The notes beneath the pieces are model-generated. The model ran no database searches, was not told the origin of the DNA, and was given only the letters and a program-made list of their open reading frames with translations. A stretch of DNA of 64,000 bases, taken from NCBI GenBank assembly GCA_963725215.1, contig CAVRXQ010000007.1:658743-722742 (forward strand), read 5' to 3'. Position numbers and translations under genes: made by a program. How positions within the stretch are numbered: position 1 is the stretch's first letter; every line of letters starts with the position of its first letter. The stretch is from an uncultured Acidimicrobiaceae bacterium. GTDB lineage: Bacteria > Actinomycetota > Acidimicrobiia > Acidimicrobiales > Bog-793. Below are positions 37,439-46,001 of the stretch, piece by piece.

Positions 37439-38695
37439 GTGGAAATCGCAGAAGTCACCCTGCCGAAACGTCGCCAGACGCGCCAGATCCGGGTCGGATC
37501 GGTCCCGGTCGGCGGCGGCGCGCCGGTCTCGGTGCAGTCGATGACGACGACGAAGACGGCCGACGTCGAAGGAACGCTGCAGCAGATCTATTCGCTCGCC
37601 GGCGCGGGTGCCGACATCGTGCGCTGCACGTGCAACGAGGCCGAAGCCGCCGAGGGGCTCGCGCGAATCATCCCCCGTTCGCCCGTGCCGATCGTCGCCG
37701 ACATCCACTTCCACGTCGAGATGGCCCTCGCCGCGCTTGAGGCGGGTGTGCAGGGCCTCCGGCTCAACCCCGGCAACTTGCGCAAGCCCGAGGAGATCAA
37801 GCTCGTGGCGAAGGAGGCGAAAGACCGCCGGGTGCCGATCCGCATCGGCGTCAACGCCGGCTCGCTCCACCCTGATCTGTACAAGAAATACGGTGGCGCG
37901 ACCGCGGAAGCGCTTGTCGAGTCGGCGCAGATGGAGCTGGCCTACTTTGACGAGGTCGGCTTCGAGGACGTAAAGATCTCCGTGAAGGCGTCGAACGTTC
38001 CCTTGATGATCGCCGCGTACCGCCTCGCCTCGCAGACCTTCGATCACCCCTTGCACCTCGGCGTGACCGAGGCCGGCCCGCCGCCGGCCGGGCTGATCAA
38101 GGCGACGGCCGGCATCGGGACGCTGCTCTCAGAAGGGATCGGAGACACGATCCGCTACTCGCTCACCGCGGACCCCGTCGAGGAGGCGATCGCCGGACGC
38201 AAGCTCCTCGAATCGCTTGGGCTACGCGAGCGAAAGGGCCTCGACCTCATCGCCTGTCCGTCGTGCGGCCGGGCGGAGATCGACGTCATCGCGGTGGCGA
38301 AGGAAGCCGAGCGCGTCCTCGAGGAGAAGAAGATCCCACTCCAGGTCGCGGTGATGGGCTGCGTCGTGAACGGGCCGGGCGAGGCGCGCGGCGCGGACCT
38401 CGGGATCGCGGCGGGCAAGCACAAGGGCCACCTGTTCATCCGGGGCAAGATCGTCCGCGTCGTACCCGAAGACGAGATGGTCGAGTCGCTCGTCACCGAG
38501 GCGGAGAAGATCGTCGCCGAGGGCATCGACGCGCGCATCGCCGCTGCCGACGACGGCGCGGAGAAAGAGGCCGAGGCGGACCGCCGCGTCCTCGTGGAGG
38601 AAAAAGGCGCCGATGCGAACCACTCCGAAGAAATCGTCGTAAAGATCCGCGAGCGCCTTTCTTCCTCGAAGGCCGAAGAGGCTCCGGCGGAATAG
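37439..38695 (+). CDS. ispG: 4-hydroxy-3-methylbut-2-en-1-yl diphosphate synthase (flavodoxin)
   Basis: PVSVQSMTTT, RIGVNAGSL, and the Fe-S Cys ligands ACPSCGR ... MGCVVNGPGE. GTG 37439 lies 9 nt after aggag; an earlier GTG at 37388 is possible. Confidence 0.92.
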   Translation: MEIAEVTLPKRRQTRQIRVGSVPVGGGAPVSVQSMTTTKTADVEGTLQQIYSLAGAGADIVRCTCNEAEAAEGLARIIPRSPVPIVADIHFHVEMALAALEAGVQGLRLNPGNLRKPEEIKLVAKEAKDRRVPIRIGVNAGSLHPDLYKKYGGATAEALVESAQMELAYFDEVGFEDVKISVKASNVPLMIAAYRLASQTFDHPLHLGVTEAGPPPAGLIKATAGIGTLLSEGIGDTIRYSLTADPVEEAIAGRKLLESLGLRERKGLDLIACPSCGRAEIDVIAVAKEAERVLEEKKIPLQVAVMGCVVNGPGEARGADLGIAAGKHKGHLFIRGKIVRVVPEDEMVESLVTEAEKIVAEGIDARIAAADDGAEKEAEADRRVLVEEKGADANHSEEIVVKIRERLSSSKAEEAPAE

Positions 38696-38789
38696 ACGGA
38701 CGACATGTCGATTCACGCGCGAGTTCCCAGTTCACGCCCAGAATGGGCCGCTACGATGCCGGCCCGAGGTAAGGGGAGAGCGAACAACG

Positions 38790-39806
38790 ATGGCATCGAA
38801 TAAGCGCTCGACGAAGCGCCCGACCCGTCCCGCCCAGCAGCGCCAGAACGGGCCGCGCCGTCTCGGCGGACAGGCGCCTCCGACGCGCTCCGCGAGCGCG
38901 CAGCGCCGCTACGAGCGCTCGCGCCGCACAAGGCGCAGTTCGAACCTGCAGGCGTGGGCTGGGGTCCTGCTCGTCGTGGCGGTGGTCCTCGCGTTCGCGA
39001 TCTACAAGCTCACCGACCACACCCCGAGCTCGAAGAACGGCGGCAATCTCGCCCTCGCCCCCGTCTCGGTCGTGAGCGAGCTTTCCTCGATCCCCGCATC
39101 GACGTTCAATGCGATCGGCACGGCGAAATCGACGGACCCCTTCACTGAGACGTCGAAACAGCCGTTCATCACCGCCGGCGGCAAGCCCCACGTCGTTTTC
39201 GTCGGTGCGGAATACTGCCCGTTCTGCGCGCTATCCCGCTGGTCGTTGGTCATCGCGCTCAGCAAGTTTGGGACGTTCAGCAACTTGCACCAAACGTCGT
39301 CGAACGCCGACTACGCGCCGATCCCGACGTTCAGCTTCGAGGGCTCCAAATACACGAGCCCATACATCACTTTTTCGGCGTATGAGGTAGCCGACCGGCA
39401 GGGCAACGCTCTCGACGTGCCGCCGCACTCGATCGACACGATCTTCAACACGTACGACGGGGTAAACACGACGAAGTCGAAGTTCAACGCCTCGACGGGG
39501 GTCGGCTACCCCTTCGTCGATTTCGCGAATCAGCACGTCTCATCCGGGGCGCCGCGGATCCTCGACAACACGATCCCGGGAGTCGCCGGAGGCGGTCCGG
39601 GAGGGTTCAACGGCATCGGCTACGCGATCGCCCACCCGACCTCGACGACCGGCAAGGCGATCAAGGCCACTGACTTCATCGCCGCGGCAAACTACGACAT
39701 GGCGGCGATTTGCGCCGTCGACGGCGGCAAGCCGGGAAGCATCTGTCACATGTCTGGCGTGAAGGCCGCTGCGAAGGTGATGGCGGCGACGAAGAAAGTC
39801 TCCTAG
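38790..39806 (+). CDS. DUF929-family membrane-anchored thioredoxin-like protein (CPFC motif)
   Basis: Arg-rich N-terminal tail, a single TM (WAGVLLVVAVVLAFAIY), then FVGAEYCPFCALSRWSLVIALSKFGTFS, typical of DUF929. The stop lies 2 nt before the VKOR start. Confidence 0.75.
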   Translation: MASNKRSTKRPTRPAQQRQNGPRRLGGQAPPTRSASAQRRYERSRRTRRSSNLQAWAGVLLVVAVVLAFAIYKLTDHTPSSKNGGNLALAPVSVVSELSSIPASTFNAIGTAKSTDPFTETSKQPFITAGGKPHVVFVGAEYCPFCALSRWSLVIALSKFGTFSNLHQTSSNADYAPIPTFSFEGSKYTSPYITFSAYEVADRQGNALDVPPHSIDTIFNTYDGVNTTKSKFNASTGVGYPFVDFANQHVSSGAPRILDNTIPGVAGGGPGGFNGIGYAIAHPTSTTGKAIKATDFIAAANYDMAAICAVDGGKPGSICHMSGVKAAAKVMAATKKVS

Positions 39807-39808
39807 GG

Positions 39809-40414
39809 ATGCCAAAGCCGCCGACTGCCGAGCGTGGCCGGCGCGCGCTGGCGGTACCACCGCCAGCCGAGGTCCGTCGGCGCTTCAGCTTCGGGGCACG
39901 CGGGCCGCGGCGTGAGGCGCGTGTTTCGGAGGATACGGAGAACCCGACAACGCGCTCTCGAATCGATGGCCGCAACGTCGTCGTCCTGCTGGCGTCGCTC
40001 GCCGGGGTCGGCGTCGCGTCGTACCTCACGCTCGCCCACTTCAGCGCCGGAATTCAGTTGTCGTGCCCGGCGACCGGTGCGATCAACTGCGAAGCCGTCA
40101 CCCACAGCCCCGAGTCCTACGTCTTCGGGATTCCGGTCGCGCTTCTCGGGTTGATCTACTTCGTCGCGATGACCGCAATCTCGGTACCCCCGCTGTGGCG
40201 TTCGACCTTCCGGGTCGTCGCGCAAGCGCGCCTCGCGATGGCGGTCGCGGGAATCGGGTTCGTCTGCTACCTCCTCTACGCAGAGCTGTTCGAGATCGGC
40301 AAGCTCTGTCTGTGGTGCACGGGCGTGCACGTGCTCACGCTGATCGTCTTTGCCGGCGTCACGACCGGATGGCGGCAGATCTCGGAGTACGCGACGGAGC
40401 CGTTCCGCCGCTGA
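39809..40414 (+). CDS. vitamin K epoxide reductase (VKOR) family protein
   Basis: TM protein with the loop Cys pair CPATGAINC and the active-site CxxC in GKLCLWCTGVH. Confidence 0.85.
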   Translation: MPKPPTAERGRRALAVPPPAEVRRRFSFGARGPRREARVSEDTENPTTRSRIDGRNVVVLLASLAGVGVASYLTLAHFSAGIQLSCPATGAINCEAVTHSPESYVFGIPVALLGLIYFVAMTAISVPPLWRSTFRVVAQARLAMAVAGIGFVCYLLYAELFEIGKLCLWCTGVHVLTLIVFAGVTTGWRQISEYATEPFRR

Positions 40415-40444
40415 CGGGCGCGCCGAGGTCGGTGGCGCGTCGTT

Positions 40445-42934
40445 TTACGCCGGGATCTCGACGATTCGACAGCCCGGCGCCGCCTCAGCCAACGTCTCGA
40501 CGACGTGCGGGTGGCAGGTGAAGGCGATCACTTGGTGCGACGCGGCGGTCTCCGCGATCACCTCGGCGACGGCCGTCGAGCGCTCGGGGTCGAAGTTCAC
40601 GAGCACGTCGTCGAGGACGAAGGGGAGCGCGACGGATCGCTCGGCGTGGACCGACGCGAGGCCGAATCGCAGGCACAGGTAAAGCTGCTCTTGGGTGCCT
40701 CGGCTCAGGGACGCCGCGTCTACCGAAGAACCGTTCTTCGTCATCGCAACGACGGCTCGGCCCGAGCCTCGTTCGTCCTCGCGTGCGACGAGCCGCTCGT
40801 ACCGGCCGTCGGTGACGAGGGCGAAGAGTTCGCTCGCCTTCGCGATCACCGCAGGTTGTCGCTCGCGTTCGTAGTGATCCATCGTCTCGCGCAGAAGTTC
40901 GCGCGCGATTCCCAATGTCAGCCACTCTCGAAGCGCGTCCCGCAACTCCCCACAGAGCGGGGCGCTTTCTATCTCCAACCGAGCGATCTCGGCGGAGTTT
41001 TCGAGCTCAGCTAGCTCGCGTGCCGCCGCAGCCTCGTCGTCTCGAATTTTCCGCCAAATTGCACGCGCCTCTTCGATCGCCGAGATCGTCCGAACGCGTT
41101 CCGCCTCCCACGCCGGGCGATCGCCTTCCGCGAGCAATAACTCGAAGCGCTCGGCCTTATTGCCGGACCCGATCGTCTCCACGAGGCTTGCACGAGCTTT
41201 GGTCAACTCGTCCTCGATTGAACGGCGCTCAGCGGCGCGTCGTTCGGACGCTTCGAGCGCTGAGGAGAGTCTCAAACAGGTCGCGCTGGAAGGCGCGTCG
41301 TCATCGATATCGCACGCGAGCGCGGCCGATCGCGTACGGTCGTCGAACTCTTCGATTCGCGATCTTTCGCCACGCAGCGCGTCGTCCACCGCCAAGCGTC
41401 GCTCCTCGAGGTCGGAAAGTTCGACGTCGAGCTTGGCGATCGCTTCGGCCTCTTTGTCGAGGCGTTCTCTCAGTGCGAGTTCTTCGTCGAGCCCGAGCGA
41501 CAACGACTCGATCTCAGAAAGAAGGGGAGCTTTCGCGAGGCCGACGGCAGACGAGAATCGAGCGATCTCCTCCGACAACCGGTCAACGTCGACAGATGCG
41601 GGAGGTCGATGCGCATCGTCGAGTTCGGGAGCGCCGCGCGCTTCGCGTCTGCCCGCCCGGCGTGCGACGACGATCACCACCACGACGGCGAGCGCCGCAA
41701 CGAACGCGAGCGCCGCGGTCACGGACTGGTGGCGGACCACGCCGACGACGCCTCCGACGACCGCGAGCGCGGCCGCGAGCACGAGTCCGACGACCATTCC
41801 CTCGCTCACACCGGGCCGCTTGGCCGCTTCGGCTGCAATGAGCATCGCGTCGTGCTGGGCTCGGATCGTGAGGAACTGGTCGCGTTGCTGAACGAGGGAG
41901 CGAATCGACCGCAGTCGATGCTGGTCGGCTCGGATCTCCGCGTCCGGTCTCGCGCGTGGCGCGAATTCGTCCAGCCGATCGGCCCGTCGTGCGCGTTCTT
42001 CGGCGAGCTCTCTGACCCCGTTGTCGATGCCGTCACGTTGCCGGCGCAGGGTCCCGAGCTTCTCGAGGCGTTCGAGGTGGCCGGAGCGGTCTTCCACGAG
42101 CGAACGGATCTCGGCCGTTCTTTCGCGGAGCTCGTAGTCGGATTCTGGTGGGTCGTCGAGTTCTCGAAGACGAGTCTCGGCATCTCTCAACCGGTTCCAT
42201 GCGGGCCCCGCGGCGAGCAGTTCATCGAGCTCGGCGCGCCTCGCGGTGAGCGCGTCCTCGCGCTCGGAAGCAGCTGAGGTCTGTTTCGCGAGTTCTCGAA
42301 GGCGCGCGGCAGAAGCCGCGTACCCGGAGGCTTCGGCCCTCTTCGCGCGCAGTTGCCGGCGCGTGTCTTCGAGACGACGGGCGAGGTCGTTCGCCCGCGC
42401 CCTCGCGCGCGGCTTTAGGAGTTCTGACTGACGATCGCCGAGTTGGCGGACGGCTTGTGTCGCCGAGCGTCCGGCACCGAGTACCCCGGCCGTGAAGATC
42501 AGGTCGCGTACCTCGTCTGATTCAAGGTTCTCGAGCGAGATGAGCTCGGAAAGCCCGAACGCGAAAACTGTGCGAAAGACGTTCGCGTCCGCTCCGCCGA
42601 GAAGTGCGCGGAGCTCTTCTTCACCGCCGGTCTCTCCGTTCGGACCCGTGACGAGCGCGCCGCGCCGATCGGCGTGCCGCTCGATCGTCCACTCGCGCCC
42701 CTCGTCGTCGAGCACCCGCAGTGATCCCCCGTGGCGGCCGCCGCGAAGCGGTTCGTGTTTCGAGATGCTCCGTTCCCTCGGGAAACCGAAGAGCACAAAG
42801 CGCACGAAATCGAGGAGCGTTGACTTCCCGGCCTCGTTTGGCCCGGAGATGACGGTGAGACGGGGCGACAATTCCTCGATCGTGAACCCGGACAAAGTTC
42901 CGAATCCGTCGACGTCGAGCCGGCGGAGCTTCAT
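40445..42934 (-). CDS. SbcC/YhaN-like SMC-type AAA ATPase with a central transmembrane hairpin
   Basis: Walker A is GPNEAGKST at the N-terminus. Long Arg/Glu/Leu-rich coiled coil. Hydrophobic hairpin GMVVGLVLAAALAVVGGVVGVV...TAALAFVAALAVVVVIVVA falls at about aa 379-425. C-terminal signature-like LSRGTQEQLYL and Walker B PFVLDDVLVNFD. The ATG overlaps the upstream stop (ATGA). Confidence 0.8.
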   Translation of the reverse strand: MKLRRLDVDGFGTLSGFTIEELSPRLTVISGPNEAGKSTLLDFVRFVLFGFPRERSISKHEPLRGGRHGGSLRVLDDEGREWTIERHADRRGALVTGPNGETGGEEELRALLGGADANVFRTVFAFGLSELISLENLESDEVRDLIFTAGVLGAGRSATQAVRQLGDRQSELLKPRARARANDLARRLEDTRRQLRAKRAEASGYAASAARLRELAKQTSAASEREDALTARRAELDELLAAGPAWNRLRDAETRLRELDDPPESDYELRERTAEIRSLVEDRSGHLERLEKLGTLRRQRDGIDNGVRELAEERARRADRLDEFAPRARPDAEIRADQHRLRSIRSLVQQRDQFLTIRAQHDAMLIAAEAAKRPGVSEGMVVGLVLAAALAVVGGVVGVVRHQSVTAALAFVAALAVVVVIVVARRAGRREARGAPELDDAHRPPASVDVDRLSEEIARFSSAVGLAKAPLLSEIESLSLGLDEELALRERLDKEAEAIAKLDVELSDLEERRLAVDDALRGERSRIEEFDDRTRSAALACDIDDDAPSSATCLRLSSALEASERRAAERRSIEDELTKARASLVETIGSGNKAERFELLLAEGDRPAWEAERVRTISAIEEARAIWRKIRDDEAAAARELAELENSAEIARLEIESAPLCGELRDALREWLTLGIARELLRETMDHYERERQPAVIAKASELFALVTDGRYERLVAREDERGSGRAVVAMTKNGSSVDAASLSRGTQEQLYLCLRFGLASVHAERSVALPFVLDDVLVNFDPERSTAVAEVIAETAASHQVIAFTCHPHVVETLAEAAPGCRIVEIPA

Positions 42935-44285: not shown

Positions 44286-46001
44286 TCAGGTGGTGCCGTG
44301 GCTCGAGACCGAGATCGGGTGGCGCCAAACGAGGATCTCGAGTCCGTAGGCGAGCCAGTCGTGAATCGGTTTGCCGAAGGTCGCCGTCGCGCTGAGGACG
44401 TTGACGTTTCCGAAGTTCAGGTCAGGATTCAAGACGATGAATTGGAACTTGTGCCCCGCGTACCACGACGAGTCGGACTCGCGGTCGTAGCGGACGAGCG
44501 TGCCCTCGGGAGTCGCGGTCACGGCGCGAACGACCACAGCGTTGCTCGAATCGACCGTCACGATCGACGACGTCCAGTAGTCGCCGAGCCCTTCGTGGAG
44601 GTGGTGCCGTTCGAGGAAGGTCGCAATCTTCGCGTAGGGATCGAAGGGGCGCGTCTGAGCGAGTTGGTATCCCGCACCCGAGGCGAGCACGGCGACGACG
44701 CAGAAGGCGACGACCGCGGTCGCGGCCGGTATCGAACGCGGCATCACCTCGCGGGACTTTGCGAAGTGCGCGGCGAGCCGAGTGGCGAAGCGCGCGGCAA
44801 GGATCGTCCCGAAGATAAGCGAGGGAACGAGATAGCGGGCGTAAGCGATGAGCGGTGCAGTCGTGAGGGCGAGAAAGACGATCACGCCGCCGATCGCCGC
44901 GAGGACGAGCATGTCGTCGATCGTCGAGCGGCGAAGAGACGACGGTTCCCGCCGGTCTCCGATCGCTGCACCCTTCACGAGCGCGCCGAGCGCGACGAGC
45001 GCGCTCGCCACGATGACGACGAGGACGACGGCGTGCCCGTACTTGAAGGACACCGGCGCGCCGCCCGTGCCGTACGCGGTGTTTCCCACGCCCACGAGAT
45101 CTGCGAAGTAGTGCCCGGCGAGCGTGAGGTTCGAACCGAACATCATCGAGTACGGCGCACGCGGGTTCGCTTTGATGAGGGTGAAGGTCCCGATGGCCTT
45201 CGCCACCTCGCGCACGACGAGGGCCAGCGCGACGCTCACCGCAGCAGCGCTCGTCGACGGCAACGCCACCGTTGCTCTTCGCGAACGCAGCGCTGCGACG
45301 ATTCCCGCGAGGAATAGGGGGATCGTTCCGAGCGCGACGACTTGCAGATCTCCGAGCGCTCCGGCGGCCAAGAAGATGACCGCGACCGCCCAACGCCAAT
45401 CGAATCGGTGGTACTGCATCGCAGCGAACGCGATGAGGCAACACAACACGGTGTCGATGTGCAGCGGGCCGCGCAGAAAGAAGTAAGCGAGCAGTCGCGT
45501 CGGGAAGGCGAGGAACGCGACGACGACACCAGCTCCGACGAGCCCGATGAGTCCGCGTTGACCGTCTCTGGCGAACAACGCTCCGCTGACGACGACGAGC
45601 GCGGCAATCACCGCCGGGACGAAATGCAAAAGGTAGCCGTGGATGCCGACGAGACCGACGGCCACCGCGTAGTACAACGCGTCGAGTAGCCAGAACGAAT
45701 CGTACGAGAGCGCCCAGCCGTGCAACGCGATGTCGCCGTGGACAATCGAGTTGCCCTCGAGGACGACGGTCGCGCCGTCGGAGTCCGGGAGGTACGAGTG
45801 GGCAGAAAGGAGGTATAAGAACGCGCTCAGCGCGACGAAGGCGACGAGCACCCCGACGACGAGGAGGACGAGGCGCCTTTGCCGCGAGACCCGGGCGCCC
45901 TCCTCGGCGGGCGGCGCCTCGGTGACGAAACGGATCGAGGACGCGCGCGGCGCGTCCTCGAGGGTTTCGGACATGGGGAAAAGGTACTTGGCGACCGCCA
46001 T
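44286..46001 (-). CDS. polytopic membrane protein, GT-C-like putative glycosyltransferase
   Basis: About 12 hydrophobic segments, a DSD motif in the first loop right after TM1 (SYLPDSDGATV), and a ~110-aa soluble C-terminal domain. Family call is tentative. An alternative start is ATG 45974. Confidence 0.5.
   Translation of the reverse strand: MAVAKYLFPMSETLEDAPRASSIRFVTEAPPAEEGARVSRQRRLVLLVVGVLVAFVALSAFLYLLSAHSYLPDSDGATVVLEGNSIVHGDIALHGWALSYDSFWLLDALYYAVAVGLVGIHGYLLHFVPAVIAALVVVSGALFARDGQRGLIGLVGAGVVVAFLAFPTRLLAYFFLRGPLHIDTVLCCLIAFAAMQYHRFDWRWAVAVIFLAAGALGDLQVVALGTIPLFLAGIVAALRSRRATVALPSTSAAAVSVALALVVREVAKAIGTFTLIKANPRAPYSMMFGSNLTLAGHYFADLVGVGNTAYGTGGAPVSFKYGHAVVLVVIVASALVALGALVKGAAIGDRREPSSLRRSTIDDMLVLAAIGGVIVFLALTTAPLIAYARYLVPSLIFGTILAARFATRLAAHFAKSREVMPRSIPAATAVVAFCVVAVLASGAGYQLAQTRPFDPYAKIATFLERHHLHEGLGDYWTSSIVTVDSSNAVVVRAVTATPEGTLVRYDRESDSSWYAGHKFQFIVLNPDLNFGNVNVLSATATFGKPIHDWLAYGLEILVWRHPISVSSHGTT

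Follow-up and report, generated by a model that had tools for sequence, protein, structure and literature searches.

A DUF929 protein as the probable redox partner of a short VKOR in an uncultured Acidimicrobiaceae bacterium and its relatives

The DsbA of Mycobacterium tuberculosis, a membrane-tethered or secreted protein with a CPAC active site and a second, structural disulfide, is encoded next to a VKOR (PMC3792642). In surveys of disulfide formation, a genome is scored on whether it has DsbA plus either DsbB or VKOR. The window considered here, a 64,000-nucleotide stretch of DNA from an uncultured Acidimicrobiaceae bacterium (GenBank assembly GCA_963725215.1, contig CAVRXQ010000007.1, positions 658,743–722,742 of the forward strand; G+C ~65%), contains a VKOR gene that directly follows a gene for a protein of the DUF929 family (PF06053). 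This family was assigned to the thioredoxin-like clan of Pfam (CL0172) in 2010 (PMC3091736), and DUF929 proteins have been found in one archaeal secretome (PMC8345856). No link between DUF929 and VKOR was found in the searchable literature mentioning DUF929 or PF06053, and DUF929 is not mentioned in the VKOR reviews and phylogenies examined. The DsbA–VKOR type of system is already known; DUF929 as its partner family is new.

A preliminary description of the window, made from its sequence, had proposed that the two genes encode a disulfide-forming pair, in which the neighbour of VKOR is something other than a canonical DsbA. The features on which this proposal was built were all recovered. The DUF929 gene ends 2 nt before the VKOR start (stop codon TAG at 39804–39806, then GG, then ATG at 39809), a gap that suggests coupled translation, and the assigned VKOR start is backed by an identical 201-aa record and by many relatives of 199–208 aa at 100% query coverage. 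The Arg-rich tail, single transmembrane (TM) helix, CPFC motif and C-terminal Cys pair of the DUF929 protein are present, as are the loop cysteines (CPATGAINC) and CLWC of VKOR, and the neighbour matches PF06053, with no DSBA (PF01323) or Thioredoxin_4 (PF13462) Pfam match at E ≤ 0.1. By sequence, then, the DUF929 protein would not be classed as a DsbA.

The genome-wide survey of adjacency that the preliminary description had called for gave a clear result. An even sample of 401 Actinomycetota genomes contained 16 with DUF929, 93 with VKOR and 136 with Thioredoxin_4. (The VKOR tally includes the unpublished-flagged genomes G001, G048 and G318, and the Thioredoxin_4 tally G001, G018, G174 and G226; none of the unpublished-flagged genomes carries DUF929 or supplied a locus for inspection.) Every one of the 16 DUF929 genomes also has VKOR (Fisher 2.4e-11, kinship ignored), and in 15 of them, drawn from seven family codes, VKOR directly follows DUF929 in the same orientation, with its match starting ~100–300 nt past that of DUF929. 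The pairing is far beyond chance.

The same slot is filled elsewhere by a DsbA-like gene. A Thioredoxin_4 gene lies directly upstream of VKOR, on the same strand, in at least 22 of the VKOR genomes, forming the canonical actinobacterial dsbA–vkor pair, and one of these genomes (G290) belongs to the window's own order. In G045, the only DUF929 genome without linkage, this canonical pair is found; the DsbA-like protein there combines an Arg-rich tail with a single TM helix and a CPVC motif, and its gene overlaps VKOR by 4 nt. Given Thioredoxin_4 genes in the same slot, and a protein of the same build in G045, DUF929 therefore occupies the positional and architectural slot of DsbA. Substitution is also visible in the counts, with a Thioredoxin_4 match lacking in 12 of the 16 DUF929 genomes versus 14 of the 77 VKOR genomes without DUF929 (Fisher 2e-5); put the other way, DUF929 is present in 12 of the 26 VKOR genomes that have no Thioredoxin_4 match. 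Of 23 sampled genomes in the window's order, only four have VKOR; three of these also carry DUF929 and the fourth Thioredoxin_4.

The association extends well past the Actinomycetota. A scan of species-representative genomes returned at least 597 loci whose products are relatives carrying the motif G[AG][ED][YF]CP[YF]CA, and at 71 of the best 80 (the closest relatives, which are not independent of one another) VKOR lies within 3 kb on the same strand, mostly immediately downstream and sometimes immediately upstream. By their record titles, the actinobacterial loci come from Acidimicrobiia, Kribbella, Dactylosporangium, Nocardioidaceae, Streptosporangiaceae and Gaiellales, and those beyond the phylum from Chloroflexota (including Ktedonobacterales), Dormibacterota, one Acidobacteriota metagenome-assembled genome (MAG) and one Bathyarchaeia MAG.

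In a quick maximum-likelihood tree of 53 VKORs, the type of partner is clustered: the DUF929 label requires 3 changes, versus 17.7 when shuffled. A single large group holds 28 of the 29 DUF929-linked VKORs, and another holds 14 Thioredoxin_4-linked VKORs; six long-branch Thioredoxin_4-linked VKORs, whose placement is uncertain, sit inside the DUF929-linked group. Groupings that contradict taxonomy are repeated in the DUF929 tree, which places the actinobacterial L113 with Chloroflexota and Dormibacterota, and the Acidobacteriota-labelled L052 with Chloroflexota, and which also repeats the grouping of L111 with L112, from two family codes. The matching groupings indicate that the two genes thus share a history, and from these sequences that history probably includes transfers as a unit.

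One metagenomic protein, P0227 (440 aa), carries both families in a single chain: a VKOR domain (residues 13–141) is followed by an Arg-rich linker and one more hydrophobic helix, and then by a DUF929 domain (249–418) that has CPYC and the C-terminal Cys pair. A metagenome scan with P0227 peptides found no relative, in none of the 95 inspected loci do VKOR and DUF929 share an open frame, and a search for longer fused forms (593 aa or more) found none. Separately, three metagenomic DUF929 proteins of 414–450 aa (P0204, P0156 and P0265) have 120–240 extra N-terminal residues without a Pfam match.

A further check concerned the rest of the genome, in which a canonical DsbA might have been the real partner of VKOR. 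The assembly (2.73 Mb, seven contigs, 90% complete) holds one DUF929 gene and one VKOR gene, and no DsbB, Thioredoxin_4 protein or exported DsbA was found in it. Its single DSBA-family match, encoded beside recA, was considered as the VKOR partner and rejected: it lacks any hydrophobic segment and has a lone Cys (CPFA) at the active-site position, and so is not an exported oxidase. The genome also has a CcdA-like gene (G000:C7:388076-388627), 310 kb from the pair on the same contig and without a recognised neighbour of thioredoxin-like type, and two membrane-anchored TlpA/ResA-type proteins with CHDC and CSPC motifs (L099, G000:C7:179995-180126, and L088, G000:C4:51371-51742), neither of which adjoins VKOR; these anchored proteins are probably reducing-branch partners of the CcdA-like gene.

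The DUF929 protein matches PF06053 at E 1.1e-19 (71.3 bits, cut-off 24.6), over residues 128–208 (profile positions 11–97 of 205), and has full-length homology, with E-values down to 1e-165, to proteins annotated with PF06053. The family numbers about 1,800 representatives at 50% identity (E ≤ 0.001), and some JGI records automatically label its members "thiol-disulfide isomerase/thioredoxin". Residues 1–49 of the window's protein contain 16 K+R versus 1 D+E, and the single hydrophobic segment follows inside residues 50–78; by the positive-inside rule the tail is predicted to be cytoplasmic and the remaining 260 residues to lie outside. The active-site motif lies within AEYCPFCALSRW (residues 140–151) and the second Cys pair within AICAVDGGKPGSIC (residues 306–319). 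An alignment of 70 homologues (32–75% identity) has among its invariant positions C143, P144, C146, R150, E199, P241, C308 and C319. The last two probably form a structural disulfide, by likeness to M. tuberculosis DsbA, in which one disulfide is non-catalytic (PMC3792642).

VKOR matches PF07884 at E 4.2e-27 (95.3 bits, cut-off 27.5). Hydropathy gives an Arg-rich cytoplasmic N-terminus of ~55 aa (13 K+R) followed by four hydrophobic segments; a fifth helix and a fused thioredoxin domain are both absent. C86, C94, C167 and C170 are invariant in 48 aligned homologues, and the TM1–TM2 loop (residues 79–100) has no K or R, a layout that is the usual outward-facing four-helix type. Charge counts thus predict that the four VKOR cysteines and the DUF929 domain all face outward, on one side of the membrane. 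A complex prediction with the VKOR core (residues 55–201) and the DUF929 ectodomain (86–338), both supplied as alignments, returned a score of 0.00, which gives no verdict and counts neither for nor against binding.

An AlphaFold2 model of the DUF929 protein, built from the 70-sequence alignment, has a mean pLDDT of 85.3, with values >90 across most of the ectodomain. It runs from a strand (132–139) to CPFC (143–146) at the N-terminus of a helix (144–157), then through strands within 162–170, an insertion (171–240) of extra strands and one helix, P241, two strands (242–245 and 249–252) and a helix (256–268), ending in a helical bundle (272–333) that carries C308 and C319. In this predicted model the elements succeed one another as they do in a thioredoxin fold. 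The preliminary description had made such a fold a point on which its proposal could fail. In both an exhaustive structural alignment and a further comparison, the top 50 matches were all thioredoxin-fold proteins (thioredoxins, TlpA, DsbE/ResA-type proteins and many DsbAs), at Z 4.7–6.3, middling by the tool's calibration, and rmsd 2.1–4.3, with 76–126 residues aligned within model residues 112–316. DsbAs are among the longest-aligned of these (113–126 residues, Z 4.7–5.7), and no solved close relative is among them. Against PDB chains, neither sequence nor profile searches produced a hit below E 0.3. Assignment to the thioredoxin fold class is made because the structural hits are coherent and agree with the published clan assignment (PMC3091736). 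A profile comparison (hhalign) of the DUF929 alignment with the VKOR-adjacent Thioredoxin_4 protein of G045 gave 94.8% probability, covering the tail, anchor, linker and active-site strand only.

Taken together, these results make it very likely that DUF929 and VKOR are redox partners. It is likely, as judged from sequence comparison, that they form a disulfide-forming pair of the DsbA–VKOR type, with DUF929 in the role of DsbA or MdbA as a general oxidase for exported proteins. In such a pair, DUF929 would be held in the membrane by its one N-terminal helix, with the Arg-rich tail inside and the thioredoxin-like domain outside, and the oxidised CPFC disulfide would be handed to Cys pairs of exported proteins. 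The reduced CPFC would then be re-oxidised by the outward loop cysteines of VKOR, C86 and C94, which, following the established VKOR mechanism, would pass electrons to CLWC, at TM4's outer end, from where they would reach a membrane quinone; the invariant C308 and C319 would most likely remain a structural disulfide. Comparative genomics supports this interpretation; thiol-disulfide exchange itself, its oxidising direction and the range of substrates are inferred. None of the refuting outcomes named in the preliminary description was observed. Of the earlier suggestion that DUF929 is the extracytoplasmic oxidase or isomerase served by VKOR, the partnership stands, through linkage, slot, trees and the lack of a recognisable exported DsbA, and the choice of oxidase over isomerase or reductase follows by analogy; its description of DUF929 as a domain of unknown function holds in that the family is still uncharacterised, and falls short in that the clan assignment of 2010 exists. 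The wider proposition, that DUF929 is a widespread replacement for DsbA, a distinct thioredoxin-fold family that has co-evolved with a short four-helix VKOR lineage and moves between phyla as a two-gene oxidative-folding module, is one that we favour with more reserve.

Several observations weigh against these readings. The genome counts are phylogenetically non-independent, and at 9 of the 80 closest DUF929 loci there is no VKOR within 3 kb; these nine loci showed no other conserved small Cys-bearing membrane neighbour that was consistent. One genome, G332, has a VKOR of the DUF929-linked type and no DUF929, and the tie between the two is therefore not absolute. The window's own protein sits on a long branch (1.6) of the DUF929 tree, which fits its partial Pfam match, the PF06053 profile reaching only the N-terminal half of its domain. 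No structural match has Z ≥ 8, the best being 6.3, and Foldseek with the model against the PDB gave none at E ≤ 0.001. The CP[FY]C motif is also found in glutaredoxins, and its dipeptide therefore leaves the direction of the redox reaction unfixed. P0227, a singleton, comes from a contig of 4.3 kb, and its fusion could have arisen by misassembly. With the genome 90% complete, a DsbA may have been missed, and the CcdA-like protein and the anchored CHDC and CSPC proteins could in principle use VKOR.

Linkage, moreover, shows partnership and says nothing of substrate breadth, so that DUF929 could be a genuine VKOR partner acting as an isomerase, or as an oxidoreductase dedicated to a few clients such as an envelope or respiratory protein. 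The invariant E199 and R150, the family-specific insertion and the C-terminal helical bundle could together make a specialised binding surface, and Thioredoxin_4 proteins are retained in 4 of the 16 DUF929 genomes. For the other 12, the window's included, a specialised role would leave VKOR without a general oxidase, and the inspected loci show no conserved third gene, a possible client, beside the pair; such a restricted partner is considered unlikely. Still less probable is adjacency without direct exchange, in which VKOR would be served by an anchored TlpA/ResA-type protein and DUF929 would act in a CcdA-fed reducing pathway for the maturation of cytochromes or copper centres. The necessary parts exist in the genome, namely the CcdA-like gene and the two anchored Redoxin/Thioredoxin-type proteins (CHDC and CSPC), and DsbE and DsbF of M. 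tuberculosis, of the TlpA/ResA-type class, are reported to aid oxidative folding in vitro (PMC3853704). This arrangement sits poorly with the presence of VKOR in all 16 sampled DUF929 genomes and of DUF929 in the DsbA slot of the operon, with the common topology of the two trees, probable transfers included, and with the likelihood of coupled translation across the 2-nt gap; the CcdA-like gene, for its part, is 310 kb away on the same contig and has no recognised thioredoxin-like neighbour.

A role of the CxxC in soft-metal handling, as in a copper or arsenic chaperone, would have precedent in the several thioredoxin-fold families that bind metals through Cys motifs, and Sco and TlpA–ScoI complexes appear among the structural matches. 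It would also have to account for a constant partner that is a thiol-quinone oxidoreductase, for the lack of any metal transporter or cuproenzyme gene beside the pair, and for a candidate cis-Pro and CPxC that are typical of thiol-disulfide oxidoreductases, and we consider it highly improbable. A disulfide-forming pair of the DsbA–VKOR type is thus the reading we prefer.

The coordinates of the pair and of its functional positions are collected in Table 1. On the 5' side and the same strand lie cdsA, dxr, a gene for an M50/PDZ site-2 protease and ispG, and on the 3' side SbcC- and SbcD-like genes are convergent; DUF929–VKOR is therefore a two-gene unit ending a co-directional block. A promoter and terminator scan of 38500–40700 found nothing exceeding shuffled expectation. 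Adjoining the SbcCD-like genes, a 571-aa open reading frame (ORF; 44286–46001, minus strand) has no Pfam match at E ≤ 0.001.

Table 1. Features of the DUF929–VKOR pair, in window coordinates
Feature	Position	Strand	Basis or remark
Shine-Dalgarno-like AAGGGGAG	38771..38778	+	11 nt 5' of the DUF929 start codon; read from sequence
DUF929 gene, 338 aa	38790..39806	+	Pfam PF06053 E 1.1e-19; full-length homologues; hydropathy and charge counts; AlphaFold2 model
DUF929 layout: Arg-rich cytoplasmic tail ~1-54, TM anchor ~55-75, exported thioredoxin-like domain ~112-316, C-terminal helical extension (predicted)			Domain limits from fold matches
CPFC active-site codons (C143-P144-F145-C146)	39216..39227	+	C143, P144 and C146 invariant in 70 homologues; between strand 132-139 and helix 144-157 in the model
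P241 codon, candidate cis-proline facing the active site	39510..39512	+	Invariant in the 70-sequence alignment; directly precedes model strand 242-245; cis form presumed
Second Cys pair C308...C319, C-terminal helical region	39711..39746	+	Both invariant in the 70-sequence alignment
VKOR gene, 201 aa	39809..40414	+	Pfam PF07884 E 4.2e-27; hydropathy; same-length relatives
VKOR loop cysteines C86/C94 (C-x7-C, CPATGAINC at 86-94), outward TM1-TM2 loop	40064..40090	+	Invariant in 48 VKORs
VKOR active-site CLWC (C167-C170), outer end of TM4 (start of last helix)	40307..40318	+	C167 and C170 invariant; hydropathy position

Other arrangements around VKOR and its relatives were seen in the sampled Actinomycetota. 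The orphan VKOR of G332 (L114, G332:C83:42200-46600, VKOR at 1959-2414 on the minus strand), in a genome with neither a DUF929 nor a Thioredoxin_4 match, overlaps by 4 nt an upstream 340-aa ORF that is glycosyltransferase-like in sequence appearance. Three VKORs of family code f44 (L115, L117 and L118, from G060, G075 and G117) form a separate clade (SH-aLRT 99); these genomes lack DUF929 and a clear Thioredoxin_4, and a check for a thioredoxin-like neighbour of these VKORs found none. A convergent gene for a CxxCxxCC-domain protein (PF03692) lies just downstream in L115 and L118, and an FKBP gene upstream in L115. Among genomes of family code f25, many Thioredoxin_4 matches (E 1e-29 to 1e-39) contain exactly one in-frame TGA inside the domain, as at G373:C44:6957-7460, G245:C110:15699-16196 and G384:C1:67730-68230; such matches could represent DsbA-like proteins with selenocysteine, or the TGA could be an artefact of reading that recurs systematically.

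Were DUF929 the oxidase, it would explain a class of VKOR genomes that seemingly lack a partner, in Acidimicrobiia, other Actinomycetota, Chloroflexota and Dormibacterota, and in two individual MAGs, one titled Acidobacteriota and one Bathyarchaeia. A domain long without a known function would thereby acquire one, and studies of how VKOR recognises its partners would gain a thioredoxin-fold oxidase of divergent structure that comes with its natural, matching VKOR.

The closest described systems are Rv2969c (DsbA-like) and Rv2968c (VKOR) of M. tuberculosis and the MdbA–VKOR pairs of other actinobacteria (PMC3792642; PMC9974433; PMC3853704). As in these, the two genes are adjacent with the thioredoxin-fold gene first, VKOR replaces DsbB, and the first protein has an N-terminal tether or signal, a CPxC motif, a cis-Pro loop (a candidate here) and a second, probably non-catalytic Cys pair. 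Unlike Rv2969c and MdbA, the partner in the window belongs to PF06053, outside DSBA and Thioredoxin_4 at the E ≤ 0.1 threshold. In place of the all-helical insertion of DsbA, its predicted model has extra strands and one helix at 171–240, and a helical bundle after the fold. Its VKOR likewise differs from those of the M. tuberculosis and MdbA pairs in being, from sequence, a short four-helix form of the lineage that tracks DUF929.

A tethered, dedicated thioredoxin-fold partner on the outer face, to which VKOR passes disulfides, is also found in the Synechococcus-type VKOR, where a fifth TM helix joins the VKOR part to a periplasmic thioredoxin-like domain, and in plant LTO1 (as summarised in PMC13486548), and the singleton P0227 shares the layout of the cyanobacterial fusion. 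In the window, by contrast, the parts are separate polypeptides, each anchored, and the thioredoxin-like part is DUF929 rather than the cyanobacterial fused domain. More distantly, the proposed role resembles that of E. coli DsbA–DsbB and Bacillus BdbD–BdbC, where a four-helix, quinone-linked membrane protein with two Cys pairs regenerates an exported oxidase of thioredoxin fold. Unlike E. coli, the window's genome has no DsbB, and DUF929 would be membrane-anchored rather than soluble, with no significant sequence match to DsbA.

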